Notes: generated from the sequence alone by a model not told the origin. A DNA stretch of 62,453 nt from an uncultured Flavonifractor sp. (GCA_947649225.1 CANSQX010000001.1:1-62453), one strand, 5' to 3'. Shown: positions 21,860 through 51,131, counted from the first letter of the stretch. Translations and numbers: made by a program.

Positions 21860-22243
21860 GTGATCCCACAGGTTTCGGACTCCGAGCTGGCGCTGATGAA
21901 AATCATCTGGGCGGAGGGCGGGAAAGCCCTGTATGCCGCCATCATGGAGCGCCTGACCGCCTCAGGCCGGTCCTGGCAGAAGAACACCGTGATCACCCTG
22001 CTCTCCCGGCTGGTGGAGAAGGGGCTGCTCAAGACCAGCAAGCTGGGCCGCCGCAACGAGTACGCCGCCCTGGTCTCGGAGGAGGACTATCAGGCGGCGC
22101 AGGCCCGAACGCTTCTGGACAAGCTCTATGAGGGCAGCGCCAGGGGCCTCGTCGCCACGCTGATCCAGGCCGGGCTCCTCTCGGCGGCGGACTGCGAGGA
22201 ACTGCGGCAGTTCTGGGAGGGGGCGTGGCAGGCCGGTGAATGA
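21860..22243 (+). CDS. blaI: BlaI/MecI/CopY-family transcriptional repressor
   Basis: SDSELALMKIIWAEGGKALYAAIMERL...WQKNTVITLLSRLVEKGLLKTSKLGRRNEYAALVSEEDY. GTG start after aggagg. Confidence 0.9.
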   Translation: MIPQVSDSELALMKIIWAEGGKALYAAIMERLTASGRSWQKNTVITLLSRLVEKGLLKTSKLGRRNEYAALVSEEDYQAAQARTLLDKLYEGSARGLVATLIQAGLLSAADCEELRQFWEGAWQAGE

Positions 22244-23996
22244 GCTGTTGAAGCGGGTGCTCTCCCTGTCCCTGTCCGGCTCGCTGGTAATCCTTCTGCT
22301 GGCGCTGTGCCGGCCCCTGCTCCGCACCCGGCTGAGCCGCCGGTGGCAGTCTTACATCTGGCTTGTGGCGGTGGTCCGGCTGCTTCTGCCCGCCGCCCCG
22401 GCGGTCAGCCCCATCGGGGCGCTGTTCCAGGACAGACCGCCGGCCGCCGTACAGCTGGAGGCAGACGGCGCATCCGCCCCCGTGACCCCGGCGGAGACGG
22501 CGATGCCGTCCGGCGCCCGGGGACCCGCCCCGCAGAGCGCCGGGGAACGGCTCCTGGACCACCTCTGGCTGATCTGGCTGGGGATCGCTCTGGCGCTGCT
22601 GCTGCGGAAGCTCACCCTCTATCAGAGCTTTGTCCGCTATGTCAGGGCCGGACAGGAGGCGGTCTCCCAGGTGGAACGGCTGGACGCCCTGGCGGAGATT
22701 GGGGCGGAGATCGGGGTCCGGCGGCCGGTGGAGCTGGCGGTCAACCGGGCAGTCTCCTCCCCCCTGCTGGTGGGCCTCCTCCGGCCCTGCATCGTCCTGC
22801 CCGGCGCCGATCTGCCGGACGCGGATTTCCGGTACACCGTCCTCCACGAGCTCGCCCACTGGCGGCGGGGGGATATGCTCTGCAAGCAGCTGGTCCAGAT
22901 CGCCGTCTGCCTGCACTGGTTCAACCCGCTGGTGTGGTGGATGGCCCGGGAGATGGACCGGGCCTGCGAGCTCGCCTGTGACGAGGCCGTGCTCCGCCGT
23001 CTGGCCGCGCCGGAGCGGCGGGCCTACGGCGACACCCTGCTCCGGGCCATGGAGGCCGGGTGCGGCTGCAAGAGCGCTCCAGGGGCCGTACCCCTCAGCG
23101 GGGGCGCAAAGCTGTTGAAAGAGAGGTTGGATGCGATTATGACATTCCGGCAGAGACCGAAGTATCTCACAGCGCTGTCTCTAGCGCTGGCGGCCGTGCT
23201 GACCGTAGGCGCGGCGGCGGCCGGGGCCTATACCGGACCCGCCGGACAGATTGCCCTTCCGGCGGTGATCGCGGCGAAGCGCCCCGGCCGGACGCCGGAC
23301 CGGAGCCGCCCCGATCCTGCCGCCCAGGCGGAGCGGTTTTACGAGGCGGGCAGCCTCCCGCTGTTCGCAGCGGTATTCGGCGATCTGGACGGGGACAGCC
23401 AGCGCGCCTGGCTGGAGCGGCTCTATGACGGCGGGGATTTTCTCTTCTTCTCCACCGCCGTGCGGAGCCTGGAGGAGGGCAGTCCCCTCCTGGCGGACTT
23501 CGCGGAGCGGGCCTATGCCGACGGGTCGCCCGCCTGGTTCTCCGCCCTGGCCGGCTGCATGGACAGGGCGGCCCTGGAGGACTGGCTGGACCGGGCCCTC
23601 GGGGACGGGGACTTCGCCTTCCAGTCCACGCTGTTCCACCTGCTGGACAAGGATGAGGAGCTGGAAACGCTGGAAAAGGAGCTGGACCGGCAGCTTGCGG
23701 CGGAGTATGCTGCTCACGGCGTCACCCTGGACGGCAAGAACCGCTGGTATCGGGGCGAGCTGGTCCGCATCTTCCTGGACCTCCAGCCCGACAGCGCCTT
23801 TTACTGCCTGGACATCAACCCCAAGGGAACTGTGGATCTCAAAATCGTCCGGGAGAACGGGGCCATCCAGGCCGTGACCGAGATGACCCGGGCCGAGGCG
23901 GCGGAGCTGCTCGACGATTGGATGGACGGGGACGGTAAAGAGCCCGGACCGGACCAGGACGCCGCCGCAGGCGTTTGGGATTGGGACTGGGACTGA
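22236..23996 (+). CDS. blaR1: BlaR1-like M56 metallopeptidase signal transducer with a non-PBP C-terminal domain
   Basis: TM N-terminus. Zinc motif VLHELAHWRRGD and FNPLVWWMAREMDRACELACDEAV. The start overlaps the blaI stop. The C-terminal ~250 aa (DGGDFLFFSTAVRSLEE...DGDFAFQSTLFHLL) is not penicillin-binding-like. Confidence 0.85.
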   Translation: MNELLKRVLSLSLSGSLVILLLALCRPLLRTRLSRRWQSYIWLVAVVRLLLPAAPAVSPIGALFQDRPPAAVQLEADGASAPVTPAETAMPSGARGPAPQSAGERLLDHLWLIWLGIALALLLRKLTLYQSFVRYVRAGQEAVSQVERLDALAEIGAEIGVRRPVELAVNRAVSSPLLVGLLRPCIVLPGADLPDADFRYTVLHELAHWRRGDMLCKQLVQIAVCLHWFNPLVWWMAREMDRACELACDEAVLRRLAAPERRAYGDTLLRAMEAGCGCKSAPGAVPLSGGAKLLKERLDAIMTFRQRPKYLTALSLALAAVLTVGAAAAGAYTGPAGQIALPAVIAAKRPGRTPDRSRPDPAAQAERFYEAGSLPLFAAVFGDLDGDSQRAWLERLYDGGDFLFFSTAVRSLEEGSPLLADFAERAYADGSPAWFSALAGCMDRAALEDWLDRALGDGDFAFQSTLFHLLDKDEELETLEKELDRQLAAEYAAHGVTLDGKNRWYRGELVRIFLDLQPDSAFYCLDINPKGTVDLKIVRENGAIQAVTEMTRAEAAELLDDWMDGDGKEPGPDQDAAAGVWDWDWD

Positions 23997-24152
23997 GGCG
24001 GTCCGGCGGCCGGCGCTCTTTGGGGCTTCCATCATAAAAAATGACGAAAATTGTACAGAAAATAGGGGCAAATTTCGGGTACTCTGTTATACAATGGAGC
24101 AGGAATTCTGAATCAAACCGGCCGGTTCACCCGGCCAGTGGGAGGATGCTCT

Positions 24153-25397
24153 ATGACAGCCCAGGAGACCTATCAGGCCCGCCTGAAGCGGGTGAGCGAT
24201 GCCATCAGCCTCAACCAGCCCGACCGGGTGCCCATTGTGCCCGCGGCCAGCGCCCTGCCCTTCTTCCTCACGGAGGACACCACCTACCGGGACGCCATGT
24301 ACGACTTTCCCAAGGCTTCCCGGGCCATCTACGCCTTCTGCCGGGATTTTCAGCCGGACGCCTTCAACGGCCCCGCCCTGACCAGCGGCCGGGCCAACGA
24401 GCTGGCGGGCTCCACCATGATCGACTGGCCGGGCCGCCCGGGCACCCGGGTGCCCGACTGGTCCACCCACCAGTGCTTCGAGTTTGAGTACCTCCAGGAG
24501 GACGAGTACCCAGAGCTGCTGCGGGATTTTACCGGCTTTATGCTCCGCAAGTACATCCCCCGGGCCTTCCCGGGGCTCAAGGGGCTGGAGAGCGTCCGCT
24601 TTGTGCCCTCCATCGTACTGAGCACCGGGGTGCTGGGGGGCCTGTATACCCCCGGGGCCCTGGCGGCCTATGATACCCTGCGGGAGATCGGCAAACACGA
24701 CGGCGAGGCGAGAGCGGAGTATGCCAGGCTTCTCGCCTCCCTCCAGGAGGAGCTGGGCCTGCCCCTCATGTGGGGAACCTATGGGGAGGCCCCCTTCGAC
24801 ATCCTCAGCGACTACTACCGGGGCACCATGGGGACCTTCCAGGACCTGGCCGAGCAGCCAGAGCACATTGCCGCCACCTGCGACCTGTTCGCCGATCTCC
24901 AGATCGAGAGGTTCCGCAGCCTCACCGAGGCGGAGCTGCCGGTGCGCCGGATCAACTTCCCCATGCACAAGGGCATGGACGGCTTCATGAGCCCCCAGCA
25001 GTACACAGAGCTCTACTGGAAGCCCCTGAAAAAAGTCCTCAACGCCCTGATTGCGATGAATATCACTCCCATCCTCTATACCGAGGGCCCCTACGACACC
25101 CGGGTGGAGCAGCTGTGCGATCTGCCCCGGGGCAAGGTCCTGGTCCACTTCGAGCAGGCCGACATGGCCCGGGCCAAGCGGCTCCTGGGGGACACCTGCT
25201 GCCTCAGCGGCAACGTCCCGGTCTACCTGCTGGAGCACGGCAGCCGGGCGGAGGTGTCCGATGCGGTCAAGGGACTGCTGGACACCTGCGCCCCCGGCGG
25301 CGGCTATATCCTGGACACCGACTGCTGCATCGAGAACGCCAGGCGGGAAAACCTGGAGGCCATGTTTGAAACCGCCCTGACCTACGGCGTCTATTGA
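24153..25397 (+). CDS. Uroporphyrinogen-decarboxylase (URO-D) superfamily protein (methyltransferase/decarboxylase-like)
   Basis: QETYQARLKRVSDAISLNQPDRVPIV... and the C-terminal DTCAPGGGYILDTDCCIENARRENLEAM are typical of URO-D/MtaA-like proteins. ATG at 24153 after gggagga. Confidence 0.75.
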   Translation: MTAQETYQARLKRVSDAISLNQPDRVPIVPAASALPFFLTEDTTYRDAMYDFPKASRAIYAFCRDFQPDAFNGPALTSGRANELAGSTMIDWPGRPGTRVPDWSTHQCFEFEYLQEDEYPELLRDFTGFMLRKYIPRAFPGLKGLESVRFVPSIVLSTGVLGGLYTPGALAAYDTLREIGKHDGEARAEYARLLASLQEELGLPLMWGTYGEAPFDILSDYYRGTMGTFQDLAEQPEHIAATCDLFADLQIERFRSLTEAELPVRRINFPMHKGMDGFMSPQQYTELYWKPLKKVLNALIAMNITPILYTEGPYDTRVEQLCDLPRGKVLVHFEQADMARAKRLLGDTCCLSGNVPVYLLEHGSRAEVSDAVKGLLDTCAPGGGYILDTDCCIENARRENLEAMFETALTYGVY

Positions 25398-25558: not shown

Positions 25559-25601
25559 GACAGCTGCCCGCCCCGGAAACGCTCCGGGGCGGGCAGCTGT
25601 C
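25559..25601. terminator. Perfect 19-bp stem hairpin between convergent operons (bidirectional terminator)
   Basis: gacagctgcccgccccgga-aacgc-tccggggcgggcagctgtc. Confidence 0.8.
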
Positions 25602-25613: not shown

Positions 25614-26582
25614 TTACTTGCCCAGGAGGGCCTGGGCGGTATCGGCGATGCCCGCGGCATCCAGATGGTAGTACTTGTAGACCTCCTCAGGGGAGCCCAG
25701 CACGGCAAACTGGTCGGGCAGGCCGGCCCGCTTGAACTTGCAGTCCAGATTGGCCTCGGCCAGGACCTCGGCCACCGCGCCGCCCAGACCGCCGTTGATG
25801 CTGTGGTCCTCCACGGACATGACGGCGCCGGTCTCCTTGGCGCACTTGATCACCTTCTCGGCGTCGAAGGGCTTGATGGTGTGCATATCCACCACGCGGG
25901 CGCTGATGCCCCGGGTCTCCAGCTCCTTGGAGGCCATCAGGGCCCAGTAGACGCTGGGGCCGCAGCCGATGAGGGTGATGTCCTTGCCGTCCCGGACGGT
26001 GATGGCCTTGCCGATCTCGAAGTCATAGTCGTTGTTGGCGTAGACGTCGGGCTCGCCGCCGCGGCTGATGCGGATGATCATGGGGCCCTGGTGGGTCAGG
26101 GAGGCGCGGATGACCTTGCGGCACTGACCGGCGTCGGCGGGAACGCAGATAGTCAGGTTGGGGATGGCCCGGTAGAGGGCCAGGTCGGCGATGACGTTGT
26201 GGGTGGGGCCGCCGCCGGAGGTCACGCCGGAGTGGGTGCCGATGAGGCGGACGTTCACATCGTTATAGGCGGCGTCGGTGTGGATCTGGTCGGCGGCGCG
26301 CAGGGGCAGGAAGGGTCCGAACACCTGGGCGAAGACCACCTTGCCGGAGAGAGCCAGGCCGGTGGCGATCCCCACCTCGTCCTGCTCGGCGATGCCCACG
26401 TTGACGCAGCGCTCGGGGTACTTGGACATCATCTTTCCGGCGGAGCAGGACTCAGGGGCGTTGTCCGAGCAGACAAAGGCGAAGTCAATGCCCTCGTCGG
26501 CAATGGCCATCAGCTCCTCGCCGTAGGCCTCGCGGGCGGAGGAGAGCATCATATCAAAATCAAAGGTCGTTTCAACTGCCAT
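25614..26582 (-). CDS. Transketolase, C-terminal (pyrimidine-binding) subunit
   Basis: REAYGEELMAIADEG...VNVGIAEQDEVGIATGLALSGKVVFAQVFGPFL-LRAADQIHTDAAYNDVNVRLIGTHSGVTSGGGPTHNVIADLALYRAIPNL. Confidence 0.9.
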   Translation of the reverse strand: MAVETTFDFDMMLSSAREAYGEELMAIADEGIDFAFVCSDNAPESCSAGKMMSKYPERCVNVGIAEQDEVGIATGLALSGKVVFAQVFGPFLPLRAADQIHTDAAYNDVNVRLIGTHSGVTSGGGPTHNVIADLALYRAIPNLTICVPADAGQCRKVIRASLTHQGPMIIRISRGGEPDVYANNDYDFEIGKAITVRDGKDITLIGCGPSVYWALMASKELETRGISARVVDMHTIKPFDAEKVIKCAKETGAVMSVEDHSINGGLGGAVAEVLAEANLDCKFKRAGLPDQFAVLGSPEEVYKYYHLDAAGIADTAQALLGK

Positions 26583-26593
26583 GACAGATTACC

Positions 26594-27472
26594 TCACTTT
26601 CTGTTTGCAATCAGCGCCTGGTACTTCTTTTCCACGGAGGCCAGAGCCTGGTCCAGCTGCTCCTTGGCGATGCCGCCGCCGTGCCACTTCCAGGTGTTCT
26701 CCATGAAGTCCACGCCGCAGCCCTTGGTGGTGTTGGAGATAATGGCCAGGGGCTTGCGCTTCTCGATGGTGGAGGGGGGCAGCTGCTCCAGGCAGCGCAC
26801 CACGTCGGCCATGTCGTTGCCCTGCATCTCCATCACGTCCCAGTTGAAGGCGCGGAACTTTTCGTCCAGGGGGTCGATGTTCATGGTGTCGGCGGTAGCG
26901 CCCGACATCTGGAGCCGGTTCTTATCCACGATGCACACCAGATTGCCCAGCTGGAACTGCGCGGCGGCCATGATGGCCTCCCAGTTGGTGCCCTCCTGAA
27001 TCTCGCCGTCGCCCACGACCACGAAGGTCCGCCAGTTGGCCTTCTGCATCCGGGCGCCCAGGGCCAGACCCACCGCGATGGGCAGCCCGTGGCCCAGAGA
27101 GCCGCAGGAGACCTCGATGGGGTCGATGTACTTGCGGTTGGGGTGCTGGCCGAACACAGCGGTATCCAGGGACTCGAAGTGCTCCAGCATGTACTCGGTG
27201 GTGTACATGCCCAGATCGGCGTAGATGGCGTAGAGGGTCTCGCCGCAGTGGCCCTTGCTCAGCACCAGGCGGTCCCGCTCCTCCCACTGAGGATTCTTGG
27301 GATCGTAGTTCATGTACTTGTAGTACAGCGCCACGGCCAGCTCTACGATGGAGAGCTCCCCGCCCAGGTGGCCCATGCCGATGTGGTACACGAAATTCAG
27401 CAGGTCCTTGCGGATCTTGTAGGACTTGTCTTCCAGCTGGGCAACCAGCTTGCTGTCAACATTTGCGCTCAT
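26594..27472 (-). CDS. Transketolase, N-terminal (TPP-binding) subunit
   Basis: GHLGGELSIVELAVALYY...DRLVLSKGHCGETLYAIYADLG...GSLGHGLPIAVGLALG...VVVGDGEIQEGTNWEAIMAAAQFQLGNLVCIVDKN. Confidence 0.9.
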   Translation of the reverse strand: MSANVDSKLVAQLEDKSYKIRKDLLNFVYHIGMGHLGGELSIVELAVALYYKYMNYDPKNPQWEERDRLVLSKGHCGETLYAIYADLGMYTTEYMLEHFESLDTAVFGQHPNRKYIDPIEVSCGSLGHGLPIAVGLALGARMQKANWRTFVVVGDGEIQEGTNWEAIMAAAQFQLGNLVCIVDKNRLQMSGATADTMNIDPLDEKFRAFNWDVMEMQGNDMADVVRCLEQLPPSTIEKRKPLAIISNTTKGCGVDFMENTWKWHGGGIAKEQLDQALASVEKKYQALIANRK

Positions 27473-27487
27473 TTCGTTTCCTTCCTT

Positions 27488-28546
27488 TCAGAGGTTGTTG
27501 CACTGGATCAGCACCTTGGGGTACTTGCCGGACAGGTGGGCGGCAAAGGCCTCCTGGGACTGATCGATGGAGTAGATGTGCTGGATAAAGGGCTTGAGAT
27601 CCATCCGGGGCAGGAGCTGGAGGGCCCGGGGGAACGCATAGGGCGCTACCAGGGTGCCGGTGATGGTGAGCTCCTTCTTATAGCACTTCTGGTACAGGTT
27701 CAGGGGCATCTCGTAGTCGGCGGGGAACATGGCGATGTAGAGCACCTTGCCGCCGCAGGCCGCGATTTCGGTGGGGATGGGGGCGGCGGGGGCGAAGCCG
27801 CTGGCCTCCACCACCACGTCGAAGCCCAGGCCGCTGGTGATGGTCTCACACTCGGCGATCACGTCCTGGCTGGTAGGGTCGATCACGAAGTCGGCCCCGA
27901 AGTCTTTGGCCAGCGCCCGCCGGTCCGCGATTGGCTCGATGAGGGTGAGGGAGGTGGCGCCGTGGAGCTTCATGAGCTGGAGGGTCAGCAGGCCGATGGG
28001 ACCGCCGCCCTGGATGGCCACCCGGCTGCCCACCTTCATGTCCGCCTTGTCCACGATGCGGGTGGCGATGGAGACCGGCTCCAGAAGACAGGCCTCCGCC
28101 AGGCTCACGCTGTCAGGGAGCTTCCAGACCTGTCCCTCGTCCCACACCACATACTCGGACATGCCGGGGGAGTCGGCCTCGTCCTTGGCGTGCTGGCAGA
28201 ACTGCTGCTGGCCGTTGTTGCAGTGGTAGCAGGAGCCGCAGAACCGCAGGAAGTTGCCGGCCACCCGGTCCCCCACCTTCAGGCCCTTGATGCCGGTTTC
28301 GCTGCCCAGCTCCTCCACCACACCGGAGACCTCGTGCCCCAGGCCAAAGGGGGCCACCCGCTGGGGGAAGATCCCCCCCACCAGATGGGGGTCGGAGCCG
28401 CAGATGGCACAGTAGGCCACGCGGATCTTCACATCATGGGGCCCCACGGGCAGGTCGGGCATCTCCAAGGTCTGGACCACGCCGCGCTCCGCCTCGTCCT
28501 TGGCCTTCATGTTGCCGATTTTTACGGCGCAGATGGTTTTCTTCAT
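27488..28546 (-). CDS. Zn-dependent medium-chain dehydrogenase (polyol/threonine dehydrogenase-like)
   Basis: VAYCAICGSDPHLVGG...GLGHEVSGVVEELG...GDRVAGNFLRFCGSCYHCNNGQQQFCQ (catalytic and structural Zn motifs). Rossmann IQGGGPIGLL. Confidence 0.9.
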   Translation of the reverse strand: MKKTICAVKIGNMKAKDEAERGVVQTLEMPDLPVGPHDVKIRVAYCAICGSDPHLVGGIFPQRVAPFGLGHEVSGVVEELGSETGIKGLKVGDRVAGNFLRFCGSCYHCNNGQQQFCQHAKDEADSPGMSEYVVWDEGQVWKLPDSVSLAEACLLEPVSIATRIVDKADMKVGSRVAIQGGGPIGLLTLQLMKLHGATSLTLIEPIADRRALAKDFGADFVIDPTSQDVIAECETITSGLGFDVVVEASGFAPAAPIPTEIAACGGKVLYIAMFPADYEMPLNLYQKCYKKELTITGTLVAPYAFPRALQLLPRMDLKPFIQHIYSIDQSQEAFAAHLSGKYPKVLIQCNNL

Positions 28547-28560
28547 GGGGAAGCGCCTCC

Positions 28561-29346
28561 TTACAGGGTAGTGGTGAAGCCGCCGTCCACGTTGATGGTC
28601 CAGCCGTTGATATAGTTGGAGGCATCGCTGGCCAGGAACACGGCGGTGCCCATCAGGTCATAGGCGCAACCCCAGCGGCCGTCCGGAATGCGGCTGTTGA
28701 TCTTGTCATAAAAGGCCTTGTTGTCCGAGATAGCCTTGTTGATTTCGGTCTGATAGAAGCCGGGCGCGATGGCGTTGGTCTGAATGTTGTACTGGCCCAG
28801 CTCGTTGGCGAAGGTACGGGTGATGCCCACGATGGCGTGCTTGGAGGCCACATAGGGCGGGCAGAGCTTGTCGGCGGTGAAGGACAGGGCGGAGGCGATG
28901 TTGATGATCTTGCCGGAGCGCTGCTTGGCCATCACCTTACCCACCTCATGGCTCAGATAATAGACGGCGTTCATGTTGAGGTTGATCACCTTCTGCCAGG
29001 CCTCGTCGGGGTAATCCAGGAAATCGTGGAACACGCCCATGCCGGCGTTGTTGACCAGAATGTCAATCTTGCCGTAGGCGTCCAGACAGCCCTTCACCAC
29101 GTCGTTGACGTGGTCTTTCTGGGTCAGATCGCCCTTGAGGAAGGTGACCTTGCGGCCCTCGGCCTCAATGAGCTTGCGGATGGTGTCGGTCTCGTCGGTG
29201 AAGTGGGGGATAAACAGGTCGGCGCCCGCCTTGGCAAAGGCTAAGGCATAGGCCATACCCAAGTTCTGGTTTGCGCCGGTGACAATAGCGGCCTTTCCCT
29301 TCAGGGAGAACATGTCCATGGAAAACTCGGTGATTTCGTGGGTCAT
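28561..29346 (-). CDS. SDR-family oxidoreductase (KduD/gluconate-5-dehydrogenase-like)
   Basis: KAAIVTGANQNLGMAYALAFAKAGA (TGxxxGxG-type), NNAGM, and the YVASKHAIVGITR catalytic Y-x3-K. Confidence 0.9.
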   Translation of the reverse strand: MTHEITEFSMDMFSLKGKAAIVTGANQNLGMAYALAFAKAGADLFIPHFTDETDTIRKLIEAEGRKVTFLKGDLTQKDHVNDVVKGCLDAYGKIDILVNNAGMGVFHDFLDYPDEAWQKVINLNMNAVYYLSHEVGKVMAKQRSGKIINIASALSFTADKLCPPYVASKHAIVGITRTFANELGQYNIQTNAIAPGFYQTEINKAISDNKAFYDKINSRIPDGRWGCAYDLMGTAVFLASDASNYINGWTINVDGGFTTTL

Positions 29347-29495
29347 AATGAATCGCTCCTTACTTTTTTAGATAGCAAGGGCTCGGCGGCAGGGTTTCCG
29401 AAGGGAGGCCCGGCCCCCGCCGTCCGGCCCAGGGGAAAAGGCGGACGGCAGAAGCGCAAGCCCTTTGCTGACGGAAGAGAAATAGGGGGTGGGGG

Positions 29496-30875
29496 TCAGG
29501 CGCCGGCGTTGGCGGCGTTGTACTCGTCAATATTTTGCAGCGTCCAGGGGGCCTGGGGCGGGAACTCCTCGTTGGGATCGTAATAGTCCTCCACGTTGTC
29601 CACATTGATACAGCCGGTGGGAGTGAACACATTGGCGGGGAGATTGTTGGCGTCATACCCGTCCAGAATATCGTGGATGATGTCGATGATGCCGCCGCCC
29701 GCGTAGTAGGGCACATTGGTGCCGGTGGCCAGCATTTTGCCCTCCATGATGTACTCCAAAACGTACTTGGCGCCGTCGGCGGCGCAGCAGACGTACACAT
29801 CCTCGCCGGGCGTCAGATTGTGCAGCTCCAGCTCTTGGAGCACGCCGGGGGACAGAGAGTCGGTCTCCACAAAGACCATATCCATGGTGGGGTGGCCAGT
29901 GATGAGGTCGGCGGCCACCTGCTGGCCGGAGCTGGTATCCGTACCGCCCGCAGCCACATAGCCCACCAGGTCCATCGTCCCGTCAATCTGGGCGGAGCCC
30001 TGATCCCGCAGTTCAATCCAGATGTTGTAGCCGTCCAGCACGCCGTCCCACCGGGAGGGATAGGGGTTGCCGTCCAGCTCGGCCTTTTTGACCAGATAGC
30101 CGCTGATGAACCCGCAGGGGCGGCTGTTGGAAAGGCCGTCGCCGGCGCGGCTGATAACGAAGCCCACCTCCATGGGCGCTCCGTTCAGCTCGTCGTAGAG
30201 CTTTTCGGCCACATACTCGCCCACCGCGTAGCCGGCCTCAAAGCTGGAGGAGAGGATGGCGGTGACGATGGGGTACTCCGCGTTGGCCGTGGTGGGGCCC
30301 AGCAGAATGACCGGAATGCCCTGGCTGACTGCCTGCTGGTAGTAGACCAGCGTGGCGTCGATATCCACAGCGTTGACCACCAGGAAATCCACCCCCTGGG
30401 TGAGGAAGGTGTCAATCTGGGTCATCTGGGTGTTCAGGTCAAAGTTGCAGTTCTGGTAGTGGAGGGTATAGCCGTACTCGTCGCACTTGGCCTGGGCGGA
30501 GTCGTACAGCTCGGTGAAGTAGGTGGAGGCCAGGGAGACGCTGGCCCAGCCGATGGTGATGTCGTCGTCGTTGGTCTTGGACATGGGCAGTCCCTTGTCG
30601 ATGTCCGCACGGCTCTCCAGGTGGGCCGCCTGAAGGCCGCCCAGGGGGAGCTTATCCTCCTTGGAGAGCAGGATATCCAACGCCGACTCCGCCGCGCCGC
30701 CGGACGCGCCGGGGGCATCGGGGGTGGGGGCGGCGGGATCGGCGGGCGCAGTGCCGGCAGGAGGTGCGCCGGTACCGCCGGAGGAAGGGGGTTCACTGCC
30801 TCCGCCGCAGGCGGTCAGGCTCAGCGCCAGCACGCCTGCCAGCAGAAGGGACAGGGCTGCGTGGTACGTTTTCAT
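29496..30875 (-). CDS. Sugar ABC transporter substrate-binding lipoprotein (PBP1 type), paralog 1
   Basis: Lipobox ALSLTACGGG, then a Pro/Ala/Gly-rich linker. ITIGWASVSLASTYFTELYDSAQAKCDEYGY...GVDFLVVNAVDIDA...GIPVILLG. Confidence 0.85.
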   Translation of the reverse strand: MKTYHAALSLLLAGVLALSLTACGGGSEPPSSGGTGAPPAGTAPADPAAPTPDAPGASGGAAESALDILLSKEDKLPLGGLQAAHLESRADIDKGLPMSKTNDDDITIGWASVSLASTYFTELYDSAQAKCDEYGYTLHYQNCNFDLNTQMTQIDTFLTQGVDFLVVNAVDIDATLVYYQQAVSQGIPVILLGPTTANAEYPIVTAILSSSFEAGYAVGEYVAEKLYDELNGAPMEVGFVISRAGDGLSNSRPCGFISGYLVKKAELDGNPYPSRWDGVLDGYNIWIELRDQGSAQIDGTMDLVGYVAAGGTDTSSGQQVAADLITGHPTMDMVFVETDSLSPGVLQELELHNLTPGEDVYVCCAADGAKYVLEYIMEGKMLATGTNVPYYAGGGIIDIIHDILDGYDANNLPANVFTPTGCINVDNVEDYYDPNEEFPPQAPWTLQNIDEYNAANAGA

Positions 30876-30930
30876 CGTTCACAGCGCTCCTTCTCTCTGT
30901 AATTTGGGGTTACGGACGCAGGATTGCGGT

Positions 30931-31902
30931 TCAGGGGCAGATCAGGTTCTTCATGCCGCGGGTGCGGAAAGCCGCCTCGCACGCCTCCAGGCTGTACTTC
31001 CGGGTGATCAGGCCGTCGAAGCGGAGCTGCCCGCGGTCCAGCATGTCGATGATCCGGGGCCAGTTCTCCCACAGGCTGCAGTTGGAGCCCTGGACGGTGA
31101 TCTCCTTCTGTACGATGTCGCCAAAGCTGCCGAGGTGGACGCCGCCGGGGGCGGTGAGGGCCAGCTCGATGAGCTTGCCCCCCCGGGCCACCAGGGAGAC
31201 CGCCTGGGCGATGCTCTGCTCGGAGCCGCCGGTCTCGAAGCAGACCCGGACGCCCCGCCCATTGGTGCGCTCCAGGATCGTCTGACGCACGTCGTCCCGG
31301 TCGCTCATAAGGATCTCCGGAATGCCCAGCGCCTTCCCGAGAGCCAGCCGGCCGGCGCTGGTGGTGCGGCCGATGAGGAACACCCGGGCTCCGCCGGCGC
31401 GGGCCACCAGGGCGGCCATCATACCGATGGCCCCCGCACCGATGACGGCGACGTCATCGGCGGGGCGCAGATCGGCGTAGTCCAGGACCGCATGGCCGGA
31501 CACACAGGCGGGCTCAATCAGAGTCCCGTCCTCGAAGCTGATGGAGTCGGGGAGGCGGAAGGTGTACTTCTCCTCCATGCAGACATACTCCGCCATAGCG
31601 CCGTCGCAGTGGACGCCTACAATGCAGAGACTGTCTGCGGTACGGAAGGGCTGGGCGGTGACCCGGTCCCCCACCTGGAAGCGGGTGACCTCGCTGCCCA
31701 CGGCGCACACGGTGCCCGTAAACTCATGACCCGGTATAAAGGGCTTGGTCTCCATGGGGATAACCCCCTGGTAGGCGTGGATATCGGACCCGCAGACGCC
31801 GCAGCAGGCGACCTTAATCTTGACCTCGTCCCGCCGCGGCTCCGGCTCCGGGACCTCCCGGCACACCAGCCGGCCCACGTCCTCCTGTACAACTGCTCTC
31901 AT
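30931..31902 (-). CDS. Zn-dependent medium-chain dehydrogenase (sorbitol/L-iditol dehydrogenase-like)
   Basis: VACCGVCGSDIHAYQG...PGHEFTGTVCAVGSEV...GDRV. Rossmann VIGAGAIGMMAAL. Confidence 0.9.
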   Translation of the reverse strand: MRAVVQEDVGRLVCREVPEPEPRRDEVKIKVACCGVCGSDIHAYQGVIPMETKPFIPGHEFTGTVCAVGSEVTRFQVGDRVTAQPFRTADSLCIVGVHCDGAMAEYVCMEEKYTFRLPDSISFEDGTLIEPACVSGHAVLDYADLRPADDVAVIGAGAIGMMAALVARAGGARVFLIGRTTSAGRLALGKALGIPEILMSDRDDVRQTILERTNGRGVRVCFETGGSEQSIAQAVSLVARGGKLIELALTAPGGVHLGSFGDIVQKEITVQGSNCSLWENWPRIIDMLDRGQLRFDGLITRKYSLEACEAAFRTRGMKNLICP

Positions 31903-31944
31903 AGGTCAGCTCCTGTCTGGTTAGTCGGATCGGTACGGGGACGC

Positions 31945-33321
31945 TCAGTCGTTGGCGTGGGCGGCGTTGTACTCGTCCACGGTCTGGATGTTCCACTCGG
32001 CGGCGGGGGCGAACTCCTGGTCGGGGGAGTAGTACTCGTCGATGTTGTCCACGTTGACGCAGTAGGTGGGGGTGAAGGAGTTGACGGGCAGGTCGTTGGC
32101 GTCATAGCCGTCCAGGATCATGTGGATGAGGTCGATGGCGCCGCCGCCGGAATAGTAGGGGGAGTTGGAGGCCACGGCCAGCATCTTGCCCTCCTTGATG
32201 TACTCCAGGGTGTAGTTGGCGGCATCGGCGCCGCAGAACACGTAGATGTCCTCGCCGGGCTTCATGTTGTGCTGCTCCAGCTCCTGCAGGACGCCCGGGC
32301 CCAGGGAGTCGGTCTCGCACATCACGGCCTCCATGTCGGGGTGAGCGGTGATCAGGTCGGCAGCAGCGGTCTGGGCGGAGTTGGCGTCGGTGCCGCCGGC
32401 GGCCACATAGCCCACCAGGTCCAGCACGCCGTCCACGGTGTAGGAGCCGTTGTTACGGGCGGTGGTCCAGGCCTTGTAGCCGTCCAGAGTGGCCTCCCAC
32501 TTGCCGGGATAGGGGTTGCCGGAGAGCTCGGCATGCTTCTCCAGGTAACCGGAGACGAAGCCGCAGGGGCGGGAGTTGGAGTCGGCGTCACCGGCGCGGC
32601 TGATGACGAAGCCCACCTTCATGGCGTGGTCGCCCATCTCGTCGTAGAGCTTCTCGGCCAAGTACTGGCCCACAGCGTAGCCGGACTCAAAGGAGCCGGA
32701 CAGGATGGTGGTGACGATGGGGTAGTCGGGCTGGGCGGCGGTGGGGCCGCAGGTGATGACGGGGATGCCCTGCTCCACGGCGCGCTGATAGTAGACCACA
32801 TTGGCGTCGATATCGACCGCGTTGATGACCAGGAAGTCCACGCCCTGGGTCAGATAGGTGTCGATGTGGGTCTGCTGGGCGTTCAGGTCGAAGTTGGCGT
32901 TCTGATAGCGCAGCTCATAGCCGTACTCGTCGCACTTCTGCTGGGCGGAGTTGTACATCTCGGTGAAGAAGGTGGAGCCCTGGGAGGCCCCGGCGAAGCC
33001 GATGACGATCTTGTCGTCGTTGGTCTTGTTCACGGGCAGAGCCTTGTTGACGCTGGCGCGGCTGTCCAGATGGGCCGCCTGGAGGCCGCCCAGAGGGAGC
33101 TTATCCTCCATGGCCAGCAGCTGATCCAGGGCGCTCATGCCGCTGGTGTCGCCGCCGCCGGGCTCGGTGGTATCGGCAGGGGGCGCGTCGGGGGTGGTGG
33201 TGTCGGCGGGGGGCGTGTCGGGGGCGCCGCCGCCGGGCTGACCGCCGCTGTTGCAGGCACACAGGGCAACCAGCATGGCGGCTGCCAGGAGCAGGGCCAG
33301 AATTCTTGCGGTTTTCTTCAT
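31945..33321 (-). CDS. Sugar ABC transporter substrate-binding lipoprotein (PBP1 type), paralog 2
   Basis: Lipobox MLVALCACNSGG. A Pro/Thr/Asp-rich linker. Long blocks shared with paralog 1 (EDKLPLGGLQAAHL, KCDEYGY, GVDFLVxNAVDIDA, SNSRPCGFxSGYL). Confidence 0.85.
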   Translation of the reverse strand: MKKTARILALLLAAAMLVALCACNSGGQPGGGAPDTPPADTTTPDAPPADTTEPGGGDTSGMSALDQLLAMEDKLPLGGLQAAHLDSRASVNKALPVNKTNDDKIVIGFAGASQGSTFFTEMYNSAQQKCDEYGYELRYQNANFDLNAQQTHIDTYLTQGVDFLVINAVDIDANVVYYQRAVEQGIPVITCGPTAAQPDYPIVTTILSGSFESGYAVGQYLAEKLYDEMGDHAMKVGFVISRAGDADSNSRPCGFVSGYLEKHAELSGNPYPGKWEATLDGYKAWTTARNNGSYTVDGVLDLVGYVAAGGTDANSAQTAAADLITAHPDMEAVMCETDSLGPGVLQELEQHNMKPGEDIYVFCGADAANYTLEYIKEGKMLAVASNSPYYSGGGAIDLIHMILDGYDANDLPVNSFTPTYCVNVDNIDEYYSPDQEFAPAAEWNIQTVDEYNAAHAND

Positions 33322-33414
33322 TGTTTCCTTCCTCCTAGTAGTTCGTATTTGGTTTCTATTCAGCGCGGTGCCGCGCGGAATAACAGGGGGGGCGGAGCCA
33401 GGGCTCCGTGGCGC

Positions 33415-34455
33415 TTAGTGGTGCTTCTTGCTGGTGACGCTCTTAAGCAGGACGGCCAGGATGATGACGGCGGCCTTGACCACCATCTGGGGGTAGGAGG
33501 CCACGTTCACCAGGTTCATGATGTTGCCGATAACGGCCATAATCAGGATGCCGACCACGCTGAGGAGCACCGAGCCCTCGCCGCCGGCCAGGCTGGCGCC
33601 GCCGATGACCACGCCCGCAATGGTAGTCATGGGGTAGTCCACGCCGGCAGTCAGGGCGGAGGCGTTGCCGGAGCGGGAGGTGATCACCACGCCGGCGATG
33701 CCGCAGAGGATACCGCCGATGAGGTAGACCAGGAAGAGGTACTTCTTGGAGTTGATGCCGGCCAGCTGCACGGCGGACTCATTGGAGCCGATGGCATAGA
33801 CCATCCGGCCGAAAGTGGTGTACTTCATCAGGAAGAAGAAGATGGCGACCACCACGGCGGCGAAGATGACCGCCACGGGCACAGGGCCGATGGAGTTGAC
33901 CGAGAAGCCCACCAGCTCCTTGTAGCCCTCGGTCTTGGAGTCCAGCATCAGGGTGTTGCCCTTGGTGATGATGTAGCAGATGCCCTCGCCGGCCGTCATG
34001 GTGGCCAGGGTGACGATGAAAGCCGGCATCCGGAGCCGGGCAATCAAAAAGCCGTTGACTGCGCCGAAGATGGCGCCCATCAGCACGCCCAGCAGCACCG
34101 CGCCCACAGTACCGATGCCGCCGCCGGACATGCCCCAGTTGATCATGGCGTAGGCGGTGACAATGCTGGACACGCCGGCCACCGAGGCCGCGCCCAGGTC
34201 AATGCCGCCGGTGATGATGATGATCAGCATGCTCATGCCGATGATGATGTACGGAACCTGCTGGCGCAGGGTGGTGAAGATGTTGGTGGGTGTGCAGAAC
34301 ATGGGAGAGATGCAGGACGCCACAATAAAGAGCGCGATAAAGATGATGATACAGTTGTATTTCATCAAAAAGCCGCTGACCGTCAGCTTCTGGGTCCCGC
34401 GGGAGGCGGCCAGGGTGCTCTCCGGCGCGGCAGTGTTCTTTTCTTTTACCTTCAT
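33415..34455 (-). CDS. Sugar ABC transporter permease (RbsC/AraH-like)
   Basis: Polytopic membrane protein. ...TGGIDLGAASVAGVSSIV... and ...GRMVYAIGSNESAVQLAGINSKKY... are signatures of the ribose-type permease family. The start overlaps the ATPase stop. Confidence 0.9.
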   Translation of the reverse strand: MKVKEKNTAAPESTLAASRGTQKLTVSGFLMKYNCIIIFIALFIVASCISPMFCTPTNIFTTLRQQVPYIIIGMSMLIIIITGGIDLGAASVAGVSSIVTAYAMINWGMSGGGIGTVGAVLLGVLMGAIFGAVNGFLIARLRMPAFIVTLATMTAGEGICYIITKGNTLMLDSKTEGYKELVGFSVNSIGPVPVAVIFAAVVVAIFFFLMKYTTFGRMVYAIGSNESAVQLAGINSKKYLFLVYLIGGILCGIAGVVITSRSGNASALTAGVDYPMTTIAGVVIGGASLAGGEGSVLLSVVGILIMAVIGNIMNLVNVASYPQMVVKAAVIILAVLLKSVTSKKHH

Positions 34456-35954
34456 TGTTCCTTTACCCCCATCGCATATTGAATGATGTTCATCTCGGAG
34501 AGCTCATCCCGCTGGAGCTCTCCAACGCTGCGGCCCTCGCGGATCACGACGGCCCGGTCGCACATGCCGATGATCTCGGCCATCTCAGAGGAGATCATCA
34601 CCACGGCGTACCGCTTGGCCACCAGCTCGTTGATGATCTTGAAGATCTCCACCTTGGCGCCCACGTCCACGCCGCGGGTGGGCTCATCCAGGAAGACGAT
34701 CTTGGAGTCGGTGGCCAGGATCTTGGCGATGGCGACCTTCTGCTGGTTGCCGCCGGAGAGGGAGTCCACGTCGTTGTTCACCGAGGCGGTCTTGATGGTG
34801 ACCTCCTTGACGTATTTGTCCACGATGGGGGTCTCCTTGCTCTTGAAGATCCAGCCGAAGGGGGCGATCTTCTTCTGGCAGGACAGGGTGATGTTCTGGT
34901 AGATGGGGCGGCGGAGCAGCACGCCCTGGTTTTTCCGGTCCTCCGGCAGAAAGCCGATGCCGTGGGCATAGGCGTCCTTGGTGGAGCGCAGATGGATCTG
35001 CTCGCCCCGCAGGGTGACGGTGCCCCCCTCCAGCTTATCCACGCCCAGGATGGCCCGCACGGCCTCGGTCCGTCCCGCGCCTACCAGGCCGCTGAGCCCC
35101 AGTACCTCGCCCTCCCGGACCTCGAAGGAGATGTCCTTCACGGCCATGCCGGACTTGATGTGCTCGGCCTTGAAGACCACCTCGCCGATGTCGGGGGTAC
35201 GGGGCGGGAAGAAGGTGGCCATATCCCGGCCGATCATCATGGCCACCAGCTGGTTGCGGTCGATCTCCTTGGTGTTGACGGTGCCCACGTACTGGCCGTC
35301 CTTCAGAACGGTGATCCGGTCGGAGATCCGGAAGATCTCGTCCAGCCGGTGGGAGACGTAGACGATGGACACGCCCTTGTCCCGCAGGCGGTTGATCAGC
35401 ACGAAGAGCTGCTCCACCTCCTTGGTGGTCATCACGGCGGTGGGCTCGTCGAGCACCAGCACCGAGGCGTTGCGGATCAGGGCCTTGCAGATCTCCACCA
35501 CCTGCTGGTAGGCCACGCTCAGGTCCCGCACCACCGTGTTCACGTTGATGTGGCCGAAGCCCAGGTCCTCCAGGCACTGCTTGGCCTTGGCCCGCATCTG
35601 GGACCAGTTGATGATGGGCTTGCCGTCCCGGAAGTCGTCCAGCAGGATATTTTCCGCCACCGTCAGGTGCTGCACCAGGGCGAACTCCTGGTAAATGACC
35701 GAGATGCCGTTGAGAATCCCGTCCTTGGGGTTGGCAATATGTACAGGCTTCCCCTTGAGCTTGATCTCTCCGCTGTCCGCCGGACCCACGCCCGAGAGAC
35801 ACCGGATCAGCGTGGACTTGCCTGCACCATTTTCGCCCATCAGCGCGTGAATTTCCCCGTGGCGGACGCAGAATTCTGCGTCCTGAAGGGCCTTGACGCC
35901 GCTGAAGCTCTTGCATATATGGTGCATTTCTACTTCATACTCGTAGTCAGACAT
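34452..35954 (-). CDS. Sugar ABC transporter ATP-binding protein (duplicated NBD, RbsA/MglA-like)
   Basis: Walker A GENGAGKST, signature LSVAYQQ, Walker B VLVLDEPT. Second NBD LSGGNQQKVAIAK and IVFLDEPTRGVD. RBS ggagg. Confidence 0.95.
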   Translation of the reverse strand: MSDYEYEVEMHHICKSFSGVKALQDAEFCVRHGEIHALMGENGAGKSTLIRCLSGVGPADSGEIKLKGKPVHIANPKDGILNGISVIYQEFALVQHLTVAENILLDDFRDGKPIINWSQMRAKAKQCLEDLGFGHINVNTVVRDLSVAYQQVVEICKALIRNASVLVLDEPTAVMTTKEVEQLFVLINRLRDKGVSIVYVSHRLDEIFRISDRITVLKDGQYVGTVNTKEIDRNQLVAMMIGRDMATFFPPRTPDIGEVVFKAEHIKSGMAVKDISFEVREGEVLGLSGLVGAGRTEAVRAILGVDKLEGGTVTLRGEQIHLRSTKDAYAHGIGFLPEDRKNQGVLLRRPIYQNITLSCQKKIAPFGWIFKSKETPIVDKYVKEVTIKTASVNNDVDSLSGGNQQKVAIAKILATDSKIVFLDEPTRGVDVGAKVEIFKIINELVAKRYAVVMISSEMAEIIGMCDRAVVIREGRSVGELQRDELSEMNIIQYAMGVKEQ

Positions 35955-36148: not shown

Positions 36149-36197
36149 CGCTGTACAAATCTCCAAACTTCACAGTTTACGCTGTACAAATCTCAAC
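36149..36197. promoter_or_regulatory. Two direct repeats CGCTGTACAAATCTC, 31 bp apart, in the araC/ABC divergent control region
   Basis: cgctgtacaaatctc starts at 36149 and again at 36180. These are exact 15-mers in an otherwise non-repetitive AT-rich spacer. Confidence 0.4.
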
Positions 36198-36245
36198 AGT
36201 TGTGCTATAGTGATTTTCAATCTATAAAATTGTATACATTATTGT

Positions 36246-37865
36246 ATGCGTATAGAAGCAAATTCCCCTGCGGCAAAGAACGGCGGAAGGTGGCGAGAGC
36301 CCTTGGCGCTTCGGCTGGTCACTTATTTGGGCGACATCGAGTTCAGTCAGCTGAACCACGGCGAGACCTACAACATCATTAAAACCGCCTCCTCCTATGA
36401 GGACTGCTTCGCCAACGCGATGGCCTATGGCGCGGACATCATCATGCGGATCACCAACCCGGTCTACCGGGTGCAGGACCTGTTCCTCAGCTTTGAAAAC
36501 TACGAGGATCTGCCCACCGTCCTGGTCTTCTATGTCTATGCGGAGGACACCGTTTTCTTCGCCGTGTCCAACTGCGGACGGCGACGAGAGGAGCTGTGCA
36601 GCCTCTTTTATCAGTTTTTCTCCGATCAGTTCCCCTTTATCTACAATTTCTCCAGCGAGTATACCCAGATCTCGGCCCGGACGGAGGGGACCGTGCAGCC
36701 CCGGATCCTCCAGCTGGAGAAGTCGGAATTTCTGACCGACCTGCTCCGGGGCGGGGACCGGCGGGAGATCGCCGCCTACCGCCGCACGGCGGAGCTGCGG
36801 CTGGCGGAGGGCGGCTACTACCTCTATGTCTGGTTCCTGCGGGACGCCAAGGGGCTGGATTACTCCCACCACCGGCAGCTGAAGGACGTCTATAATTTCA
36901 TCGGGGCCCTGCTCCAGCGGGAGTGCCAGGAGGTCCTGGACGCCCACCGGGGCGGCGAGGTCTTTTACAGCGATCCCCGGCGGCTGTGCGCCCTGATCAA
37001 CGCGCCGGCCAGCCAGGAGGAGGTCCGCCAGATCGCCGGCGGGCTGACCTACGCCATGGGCACCGCCGACGCCGCCCGCTACATGAGCGGCCACTTCAAG
37101 GGCGTGGAGGGGGCCCGGGAGGCCTTTGAGTCCATCAACGAGCTGCGCCGGTACAACTTCTTCTGCCGGGACGCCGAGCTCATCACCGCCCGGCTGATCC
37201 AGTCCCTGACCCGGCCGCCCAAGCCCGGGCAGGTCAACCAGCTTCTGGCACAGATCCAGCGCCTCATCACCTACGAGACCGGCAGCCCCGATCTGCCGGA
37301 GCTGGTCCAGCAGCTCTTTCTCCGGGTCGTCAAGCCCAGCATGGATTACGACCTGTTTTTCTACTGCATGTCCAACGTCAACTCCTTCCTCTATGAAAAG
37401 CTCACGGAGCGGTTCCAGGCCCCGGCGCCCATCCGGATCCCCCGGACCGTCAATCTCCAGCACTCCAACATCGAGATCGAGTGCGGCAACCTGCTTACCG
37501 CCATCCAGCATCTCCAGACCAACGCCCAGACCGGCGTGGCCACCGTCAAAAACCCCCTGGTGGCCAAGGCGGTCAAATATATCCAGAAAAACTACGCCGA
37601 GGACATCTCCCTGCTCACCCTGGCCCAGCATCTCAACATCAGCAGCGTCTATCTGAGCCAGCTGTTCAAAAAGGAGCTGGGGACCAGCCCCATCAAGTTC
37701 ATCATCCACTACCGCATCGACCGGGCCAAGGTCCTGCTCAAGGAGACCGACGACTCCATCTCCAACATTGCGGTCAAGGTGGGCTTCTGGGAGCCCAAGC
37801 ACTTCTCCAAGACCTTCAAGCGCGTCACGGGGATCTCCCCGATGCAGTATAAGAAGAGCCAGTAA
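36246..37865 (+). CDS. AraC-family transcriptional regulator with a large N-terminal sensor region
   Basis: C-terminal HTH pair VKYIQKNYAEDISLLTLAQHLNISSVYLSQLFKKELGTSPIKFIIHYRIDRAKVLLKETDDSISNIAVKVGFWEPKHFSKTFKRVTGISPMQY. Confidence 0.85.
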   Translation: MRIEANSPAAKNGGRWREPLALRLVTYLGDIEFSQLNHGETYNIIKTASSYEDCFANAMAYGADIIMRITNPVYRVQDLFLSFENYEDLPTVLVFYVYAEDTVFFAVSNCGRRREELCSLFYQFFSDQFPFIYNFSSEYTQISARTEGTVQPRILQLEKSEFLTDLLRGGDRREIAAYRRTAELRLAEGGYYLYVWFLRDAKGLDYSHHRQLKDVYNFIGALLQRECQEVLDAHRGGEVFYSDPRRLCALINAPASQEEVRQIAGGLTYAMGTADAARYMSGHFKGVEGAREAFESINELRRYNFFCRDAELITARLIQSLTRPPKPGQVNQLLAQIQRLITYETGSPDLPELVQQLFLRVVKPSMDYDLFFYCMSNVNSFLYEKLTERFQAPAPIRIPRTVNLQHSNIEIECGNLLTAIQHLQTNAQTGVATVKNPLVAKAVKYIQKNYAEDISLLTLAQHLNISSVYLSQLFKKELGTSPIKFIIHYRIDRAKVLLKETDDSISNIAVKVGFWEPKHFSKTFKRVTGISPMQYKKSQ

Positions 37866-51119: not shown

Positions 51120-51131
51120 TGTGCCGTCTGA

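Follow-up and report, generated by a model that had tools for sequence, protein, structure and literature searches.

The 62,453-nt stretch of DNA analysed here (the window) comes from an uncultured Flavonifractor sp. (GCA_947649225.1, CANSQX010000001.1:1-62453) and carries an operon of nine minus-strand open reading frames (ORFs) which, in the ORF map of the window, follow one another directly from position 35954 to 25614 with spacers of -4 to 149 bp (Table 1). The ORFs, their coordinates and their domain content all match the nine-gene order proposed by an initial annotation of this DNA. The operon is a composite of a transporter module, made up of a CUT2 importer, two substrate-binding proteins (SBP1 and SBP2) and a medium-chain dehydrogenase/reductase (MDR-b), and a conserved four-gene cassette consisting of a short-chain dehydrogenase/reductase (SDR), a second medium-chain enzyme (MDR-a) and the two subunits of a split transketolase (TK-N and TK-C). 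The perfect 19-bp terminator of the initial annotation was verified as an inverted repeat with 19-nt arms (25559-25577 and 25583-25601) that begins 13 nt past the TK-C stop codon and is followed by a weak T tract. An AraC-family regulator, whose long N-terminal domain matches no Pfam family, is transcribed divergently from the operon and is 63% identical to a cassette-adjacent regulator in a related locus (L009). The 291-bp spacer between the two transcription units holds a direct repeat, CGCTGTACAAATCTC, which was sought in the related loci and found not to be conserved, so it is considered an operator candidate only.

Table 1. Genes and regulatory features of the operon region (positions counted from the first nucleotide of the window; aa, amino acids)
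Feature	Coordinates	Strand	Description	Basis
ATPase	34452..35954	-	CUT2-type sugar ABC transporter ATPase, two ABC_tran domains	Pfam, NCBIfam
Permease	33415..34455	-	ABC permease, BPD_transp_2	Pfam, NCBIfam
SBP2	31945..33321	-	Substrate-binding lipoprotein, 458 aa, Peripla_BP_4	Pfam
MDR-b	30931..31902	-	Zn-dependent MDR dehydrogenase, 323 aa, ADH_N + ADH_zinc_N	Pfam
SBP1	29496..30875	-	Substrate-binding lipoprotein, 459 aa, Peripla_BP_4	Pfam
SDR	28561..29346	-	Cassette SDR, 261 aa, KduD / gluconate-5-dehydrogenase type	Pfam, NCBIfam
MDR-a	27488..28546	-	Cassette Zn-dependent MDR dehydrogenase, 352 aa, DesC-like	Pfam, PDB relatives
TK-N	26594..27472	-	Transketolase_N, thiamine diphosphate (ThDP) diphosphate-binding subunit	Pfam
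TK-C	25614..26582	-	Transket_pyr + Transketolase_C, pyrimidine-binding subunit	Pfam
Terminator hairpin	25559..25601	-		Perfect 19-bp stem, 5-nt loop
AraC-family regulator	36246..37865	+	539 aa, divergent from operon	HTH_18/HTH_AraC at residues 459-537
Direct repeat CGCTGTACAAATCTC	36149..36201	.	Candidate operator	Two copies, 31 bp apart

The sequence originates from the mouse gut, and transcription of the operon was seen in four mouse-gut metatranscriptomes, where single RNA contigs run from TK-C through the ATPase gene (25586/25685..34763), for example 25685-34763 in run X2 and 26134-34763 in run X4. Word depth, a crude measure of expression when taken from RNA contigs, was 19-139 over the operon compared to approximately 0-12 in the flanking URO-D-like and AraC genes (a 5- to 14-fold difference), and two RNA contigs stop at 25586 and 25597, within the terminator hairpin. 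The depth steps at both ends and the continuity over all intergenic gaps show that the operon is a polycistronic, well-expressed unit whose 3' end lies at the predicted terminator. At position 33386, in the spacer between the permease and SBP2 genes, one base of the window is missing in the RNA contigs of three runs, and the RNA contigs of those runs also share many substitutions relative to the window, so the expressed strain is slightly unlike the window strain.

The four cassette genes are not peculiar to this genome. On contigs carrying TK-N homologues, both close and distant, an SDR (261 aa), an MDR (~350 aa), TK-N and TK-C are always found together. Relatives of the cassette MDR were present in 172 species genomes, a count that undercounts since the genome scan used two peptide patterns, and 80 loci were returned (one genome per species, alignment of the cassette MDR). 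The MDR gene adjoins a transketolase in 55 of these, and an SDR is present too in 42 of the 55, a figure affected by the many contigs of cassette loci that end early. Loci were mapped by our own ORF calling and by BLAST against a reference set drawn from the analysed loci. The closest genome by MDR in the GTDB scan was a Parasporobacterium metagenome-assembled genome (MAG; 76% identity), and the cassette SDRs are 53-88% identical to that of the window across loci. Transporters next to the 55 cassettes were of the GPH/MFS type in 19 loci and of the CUT2 ABC type in five, with none adjacent in the rest, and 29 of the cassettes have an AraC gene as a neighbour. Carriers include the acetogens C. 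ljungdahlii, C. drakei, C. magnum and C. thailandense, as well as Propionispira, Lactonifactor, Sporobacter, Faecalicatena, Paenibacillus validus, Treponema, Sphaerochaeta, Planctomycetota and many MAGs from rumen, termite gut and digesters, spanning Clostridia, Negativicutes and spirochaetes. Gene sets of this kind have been noted before and, to our knowledge and as far as we searched, have had no function assigned to them. Ridlon et al. (2013) reported them from C. leptum, C. ljungdahlii, C. carboxidivorans, Clostridium sp. MSTE9 and Treponema primitia, as genes resembling desC that neighbour transketolase subunits and a transporter of the Na+/melibiose type.

A sugar kinase is almost always missing from this arrangement. 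Pfam scans of the operon and the ~35 other genes of the 62-kb window detected no sugar kinase or isomerase domain, and only one of the 55 cassette loci (L079, Alkalibaculum sporogenes) has an FGGY kinase within ~10 kb, two genes past the cassette and 39% identical to the apiose-pathway kinase AplK. In one other cassette locus a PfkB gene is present as part of an adjacent operon. The 93 unannotated cassette neighbours included no recurrent sugar-kinase or isomerase family; the commonest family was 6-phosphofructokinase (4/93, all in acetogens). Since 54 of the 55 loci have no FGGY kinase and no other such family recurs, the absence of a kinase, already pointed out in the initial annotation, is a conserved property of the cassette and not an accident of the window. 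The 6-phosphofructokinase gene (PF00365) lies directly 3' of the cassette in acetogenic clostridia and Alkalibaculum (L024, L027, L035, L079 and L017), and in L079 the FGGY kinase gene follows it. Such neighbours would fit the processing of products of the pentose-phosphate pathway.

Sequence comparison places the transketolase nearest to the steroid side-chain-cleaving enzyme DesAB. TK-N is 42% identical to DesA and TK-C 46% identical to DesB (with MDR-a 31% identical to DesC; desABCD locus L020), and the corresponding values against AptA and AptB of E. coli SE15 are 41% and 40% (205 and 206 bits), the C-subunit score being far below that of DesB. When 1.84 billion 50%-identity representatives were searched exhaustively with TK-C by HMMER, the cassette clade came back as one full-length representative (65% identity, 471 bits), and the next match, at 308 bits and 47-50% identity, is a representative that is itself 79% identical to DesB. 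Canonical split transketolases rank after the DesB clade, at ~40% identity to TK-C. The search settles the ranking and, on this basis, the DesB clade is the nearest known sequence family of TK-C and the cassette appears as a separate, discrete clade. The best NCBIfam match of the transketolase is the generic transketolase model.

The active site was read from alignments and not from structures. The TK-N residues H35, H75, H110, D155, N185 and H264, which correspond to human H37, H77, H110, D155, N185 and H258, are invariant in 47 cassette members, and TK-C retains E66, H117 and H128, so that the canonical ThDP/Mg-binding and catalytic residues (four His, GDG, Asn, Glu and the His473 equivalent) are present. 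A His pair in yeast and E. coli transketolase holds the C1 hydroxyl of the donor. Because this pair is invariant in TK-N, the donor is predicted to be a hydroxymethyl ketone rather than a 2-oxoacid or a ketone with a methyl end. The phosphate site of TK-C (R17, S45, H117 and R174, equivalent to human R318, S345, H416 and R474) is kept throughout the cassette, whereas DesB has no equivalents of R17 and S45. The retained residues suggest that one of the two partners is probably phosphorylated, and the simplest reading is that the acceptor, and hence the product, is probably a sugar phosphate. All cassette TK-C sequences carry the motif GGGPTHN in place of the canonical GEDGPTHQ, so that an Asp (E. 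coli D469, human D424) is replaced by Gly in every member. The same position is occupied by Tyr in DesB and Leu in AptB, whereas human TKT and the C. hydrogenoformans enzyme have GEDG and the canonical pair of locus L090 has NDG. In E. coli and yeast transketolase this Asp reads the C2 hydroxyl of the acceptor and the C4 hydroxyl of the donor; the cassette enzyme would therefore not select the usual D-threo skeleton beyond C3. A second type of split transketolase, ~38-40% identical to the window pair, occurs at L062:6968-8800, L077:7993-9800 and L083:11093-12900 and also in L033 and L045, where a cassette-like MDR gene precedes it and genes for a DesD-like transporter and an MDR of 338 aa come after it. 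The C subunit of this second type carries GTGGGLTSGGGSTHN and no longer has counterparts of H117 and R174, which are two of the four phosphate ligands.

Among solved structures, MDR-a is closest to 4OH1 (205 bits, with the runner-up at 157 bits), which is the Clostridium scindens DesC, a 20-alpha-hydroxysteroid dehydrogenase (20-alpha-HSDH; PMC13348027). The catalytic and structural Zn ligands of MDR-a are invariant. The family of DesC-like MDRs forms a continuum and not two isolated groups, since intermediate sequences bridge the two, at 40-49% identity to DesC and 36-43% to MDR-a; a further set of about fifty 90%-identity clusters (P0123-P0171) is 59-69% identical to DesC. The SDR scores 351.6 bits against the PRK06935 KduD model (cut-off 369), and its best solved relative is 4Z9Y. 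What KduD, gluconate 5-dehydrogenase, DesC and the sorbitol dehydrogenases have in common is that they form or reduce a -CO-CH2OH group near a terminal carbon. MDR-b is 29% identical to MDR-a, has a shortened structural-zinc loop and finds its best solved relatives in 5VM2, (R,R)-butanediol dehydrogenase and sorbitol dehydrogenase; it is an add-on of the transporter module and lies outside the conserved cassette.

The importer has the make-up of a CUT2 system, with a fused two-domain ATPase, a BPD_transp_2 permease and Peripla_BP_4 binding proteins of the class I periplasmic binding protein (PBP) fold. The best NCBIfam models for the ATPase are AraG, XylG and RbsA, all scoring under their cut-offs. 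SBP1 and SBP2 are paralogues (64% identical) that both start with a lipoprotein signal (…AC/NSGG and …AC/GGGS) followed by a Pro/Gly/Thr-rich tether, features that point to a Gram-positive host. An AlphaFold model of SBP2 (pLDDT 94.6) gave the CUT2 binding protein 4RY9 as the top Foldseek match (TM 0.90, target-normalised), followed by ribose- and galactofuranose-binding proteins, so the model is of a confident sugar-binding CUT2 fold of the class I PBP type. 4RY9 is reportedly a polyol complex. Naming a specific ligand from the fold search was given up, as the matches show the generic CUT2 fold. The SBPs belong to a small subfamily, which comprises 75 clusters (E<=1e-20) among 5.8 billion.

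A member of this SBP subfamily led to a paralogous cluster in Sporobacter termitidis (L102) with the order AraC (525 aa), SDR, ATPase, permease, SBP, MDR, dihydrolipoyl dehydrogenase, E1alpha, E1beta, E2 and lipoate ligase (LplA). In L009, the window's closest relative, the same arrangement immediately adjoins the transketolase cassette. Compared to the window, the L102/L009 cluster has an SDR of 52-60%, an ATPase of 71-75%, a permease of 57-70% and an SBP of 44-56% identity; its MDR is 40% identical to MDR-a, and the L102 AraC protein is 31% identical over its full length. As their AraC, SDR, MDR, ABC and SBP components are related, the window operon and the E1/E2/E3 cluster are modular twins which differ in the ThDP enzyme, a split transketolase in one and an acetoin-dehydrogenase-type E1/E2/E3 complex in the other. 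The SBPs of the twin and the window are of one subfamily, and the known systems to which the twin is likened are acetoin dehydrogenase clusters of the AcoABCL type that have butanediol dehydrogenases. The three stereoisomers of 2,3-butanediol are handled by an MDR together with an SDR, and both types of ThDP enzyme act by breaking the bond adjacent to the carbonyl in an alpha-hydroxyketone. The twin cluster therefore supports a route from a vicinal diol to an alpha-hydroxyketone and on to ThDP-dependent C-C cleavage. The E1/E2/E3 twin passes the C2 unit oxidatively to lipoamide and CoA, whereas the window transketolase is predicted to pass it to an aldose, and the conserved His pair of the latter implies a donor bearing CH2OH, unlike the acetoin-type system. 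Acetoin-type substrates for the twin complex are what we infer from general knowledge of such complexes in strict anaerobes.

Taken together, our data make it rather probable, though far from certain, that the operon serves the catabolism of a polyhydroxy compound, small and neutral (or distally anionic), and would work without a kinase by C2 transfer from a non-phosphorylated ketol. The genes and their families, their transcription as one unit and the cassette's conservation and relationships are established, and the steps below are what we infer. The CUT2 importer with its two paralogous SBPs would import a monosaccharide-sized polyol or rare sugar, possibly as two stereoisomers. MDR-a and the SDR, probably of opposite stereospecificity as are DesC/DesE or IdnD/IdnO, would then oxidize the penultimate carbinol of a terminal -CHOH-CH2OH to give a 1-hydroxy-2-ketone (ketol). 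If the substrate were an aldose, one dehydrogenase would reduce it first, the MDR-a/SDR pair standing in for an isomerase. The split transketolase would bind the free ketol as donor, cleave C2-C3 and hand the C2 unit to a phosphorylated aldose, for example glyceraldehyde 3-phosphate to give xylulose 5-phosphate, by which the carbon would enter the pentose-phosphate pathway without ATP. MDR-b, or else enzymes whose genes lie elsewhere, would reduce or oxidize the leftover aldehyde or ketone. An iron-dependent alcohol dehydrogenase and an aldehyde:ferredoxin oxidoreductase stand on the flanks of the Clostridium bovifaecis cassette; they fit a small aldehyde product and would suit glycolaldehyde. 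The initial annotation had proposed that an imported compound is oxidized and then cleaved; this logic fits all the evidence, although its three oxidoreductases are of unequal standing, two being cassette members and MDR-b an addition. By analogy with the 2,3-butanediol/acetoin-type twin cluster, we weakly favour the C4 polyols erythritol and threitol as substrates, which would be converted via L-erythrulose to glycolaldehyde and a C2 unit. Free apulose, pentuloses or keto-sugar acids with the carboxylate in the phosphate pocket may be alternatives.

Several points weigh against this interpretation. The kinase search of this genome covered 62 kb, and a kinase may lie elsewhere. The kept phosphate site is equally compatible with a phosphorylated donor, and the residue-based argument is weak because AptB, which has phosphorylated substrates, aligns poorly there. 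What becomes of the aldehyde product is not specified by the genes of the operon, the case for a tetritol is purely analogical, and the E1/E2/E3 of the twin cluster scores as pyruvate dehydrogenase-like in NCBIfam. No experimental characterization (activity, ligand or growth) of any cassette member was found in the literature searched, where there is genome-based speculation for Halanaerobium only (PMC10536098).

The initial annotation regarded a non-phosphorylated transketolase donor as novel, a view that does not hold because the principle is known from DesAB and SqwGH. DesAB is a transketolase acting on the non-phosphorylated ketol side chain of cortisol (PMC3735941, PMC12065433), and DesC and DesE interconvert the 20-alcohols and the ketone (PMC3735941, PMC12065433, PMC13348027). 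The des operon of C. scindens and its relatives comprises the DesAB transketolase, the Zn-dependent 20-alpha-HSDH DesC, the SDR-type 20-beta-HSDH DesE and the GPH-type transporter DesD, and its enzymes interconvert an alcohol and a ketol, after which a C2 ketol unit is removed from the non-phosphorylated donor in a ThDP-dependent step. Common to des and the cassette are a split transketolase adjoining a Zn-MDR of the same subfamily and the lack of a kinase; the window has MDR-a, as the DesC-type dehydrogenase, contiguous with TK-N and TK-C, and cassette members elsewhere add an SDR and often a GPH transporter, as des does. The two systems differ in that the window SDR is KduD-like, not DesE-like, the window importer is a sugar ABC system and the cassette is much more widespread, with 172 species genomes matched compared to 44 des operons in 2.23 million genomes (PMC12876203), and occurs in habitats without glucocorticoids. 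SqwGH is a 6-deoxy-6-sulfofructose transketolase with a non-phosphorylated donor and glyceraldehyde 3-phosphate as acceptor, yielding xylulose 5-phosphate, and the resulting aldehyde is reduced by an alcohol dehydrogenase (PMC9594981). The likeness, drawn from pathway descriptions and not from sequence, lies in the split transketolase and in the occurrence in anaerobic Firmicutes (SqwGH of Clostridium sp. MSTE9). The sulfo-transketolase pathway needs the sulfoquinovosidase YihQ, the isomerases SqvD and SqwI and DUF4867 (PMC9594981), and identity with it was rejected as these families are absent from all Pfam scans of the window.

A conventional route, in which the ketose would be phosphorylated by a kinase encoded elsewhere and the ketose phosphate would serve as donor as in AptAB or an erythrulose-phosphate route, is unlikely. 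All four phosphate-binding residues are kept in TK-C, the AplK-like FGGY kinase of L079 lies near a cassette and the visible part of the genome is 62 kb. Against this, an FGGY kinase within ~10 kb is lacking from 54 of the 55 cassette loci, which represent several phyla, characterized apiose clusters keep aplK beside aptAB, and the nearest family, DesAB, takes a non-phosphorylated donor. The D-apiose transketolase pathway was reportedly described by Carter and colleagues in 2018, with AplK as an FGGY kinase and AptA/AptB as an apulose-4-phosphate transketolase. The route, which the initial annotation offered as a parallel, is real and does need a kinase, with aplK, aptA and aptB required together (PMC13001218; E. 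coli SE15 locus), but the des system stands closer to the window operon. The likeness consists of a split transketolase with a CUT2 ABC importer and, in E. coli, of two oxidoreductases replacing the isomerase. Apiose clusters carry an FGGY kinase beside aptAB and a SorC regulator, whereas the window operon has neither, and AptA/AptB orthologues and an apiose-type SBP sequence are likewise missing from it. The apiose system was ruled out as the closest relative by the low identities to the E. coli SE15 cluster proteins, which for the window SBPs amount to 25% over 108 residues (unrelated) and for the SDR to 29-31%.

A kinase-free version of apiose use would run from apiose via apiitol to apulose by two dehydrogenases, with the transketolase giving a C2 unit and dihydroxyacetone, and we consider it improbable. 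Two oxidoreductases of E. coli ST131 have been hypothesized to replace the apiose isomerase (PMC13001218), the Asp-to-Gly exchange would drop the reader of the C4 hydroxyl and free room at C3, AptB and DesB, with their tertiary-C3 donors, likewise have no Asp at this position, and carriers inhabit plant-degrading guts and digesters. AptAB, however, is no closer (40-41%) than other split transketolases, and the SBP and SDR identities just given do not favour an apiose system. A sugar-acid version, with the SDR and MDR converging from gluconate- or idonate-type acids on a 5-keto acid as IdnO and IdnD would, the carboxylate sitting in the phosphate pocket and the transketolase cleaving the product, is very doubtful. 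IdnD and IdnO are the Zn-MDR and SDR pair of the E. coli L-idonate pathway, which the two enzymes acting on one ketol would resemble; the SDR is nearest to the KduD and gluconate 5-dehydrogenase models and the Arg/His pocket is retained in TK-C. The transporters, on the other hand, are CUT2 ABC or GPH systems and not the usual acid carriers, MDR-a scores 97 bits on the L-idonate 5-dehydrogenase model against a cut-off of 469, and there is no direct evidence for such a substrate.

Steroid side-chain cleavage (desmolase activity) as the role of the operon is highly improbable, even though DesA, DesB and DesC (the best PDB match of MDR-a) are the nearest characterized relatives and the gene neighbourhood is of the des type. 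The identities of 42% and 46% and the separate 50%-identity representatives place the window pair outside the DesA/DesB clade; the former are far under the desA family mean of 78 ± 15%, in a screen that keeps best hits with >50% local identity (PMC12876203). Moreover, R17 and S45, lost in DesB, are kept in the window TK-C, the importer is of the CUT2 sugar type and its binding protein folds like a ribose-binding protein, and the carriers include acetogens and termite-gut, rumen and digester bacteria. That TK-N and TK-C are merely the ordinary pentose-phosphate transketolase of the cell beside a polyol operon is scarcely credible since, for all their canonical catalytic residues and generic NCBIfam match, the four-gene cassette is conserved across phyla, the Asp-to-Gly exchange is absent from human and canonical split enzymes (C. 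hydrogenoformans and the second pair of L090), the L090 contig carries such a canonical pair alongside the cassette and the nearest family is DesB.

The remainder of the window holds genes of varied function. URO-D-like genes (PF01208) with no NCBIfam match flank the operon at 24138-25397 (+) and 37919-38932 (+) and also occur near the cassette elsewhere (e.g., L035, L060, L068, L070 and L094); corrinoid methyltransferases are among the members of this family. A pair of hybrid sensor histidine kinases with two receivers each and a 457-aa Peripla_BP_4 protein, at 14147-16987 (+), 17151-20222 (-) and 20226-21599 (-), look like a sugar-sensing signalling module upstream of the operon. A BlaI-type repressor and BlaR1 M56 sensor-peptidase pair is found at 21860-22243 (+) and 22236-23996 (+). 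The block at 45294-56497 (+), where the GC content reaches 75% compared to ~63% in the operon, encodes a radical-SAM protein, an AMP-binding enzyme, XdhC, a MobA-like/HD protein, a 945-aa molybdoenzyme of the xanthine-dehydrogenase family and an Fe-S/CCG flavoprotein. A flagellin of unusual length (703 aa) at 281-2392 (-) has a large central insert between its conserved N- and C-terminal helices, and a CsrA-like gene lies by it at 2557-3009.

What is new here is a large, discrete cassette clade in an operon of the sugar type, the almost complete absence of a kinase from its loci, the Asp-to-Gly exchange, the E1/E2/E3 twin and strong expression in the gut. It is possible, and we propose it tentatively, that the cassette is a widespread, self-contained 'transketolase shunt' by which strict anaerobes would activate neutral polyols and rare sugars without ATP, moving C2 units from free ketoses onto glyceraldehyde 3-phosphate, that it is ancestral to DesAB/DesC and that the acetoin-type twin serves methyl-terminated analogues. 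Several carriers are culturable and some, such as Clostridium ljungdahlii, are genetically tractable, so the proposal is directly testable. If it is true, the cassette would provide a defined negative set for metagenomic desAB screens and would explain the origin of the medically relevant, androgen-forming steroid desmolase.

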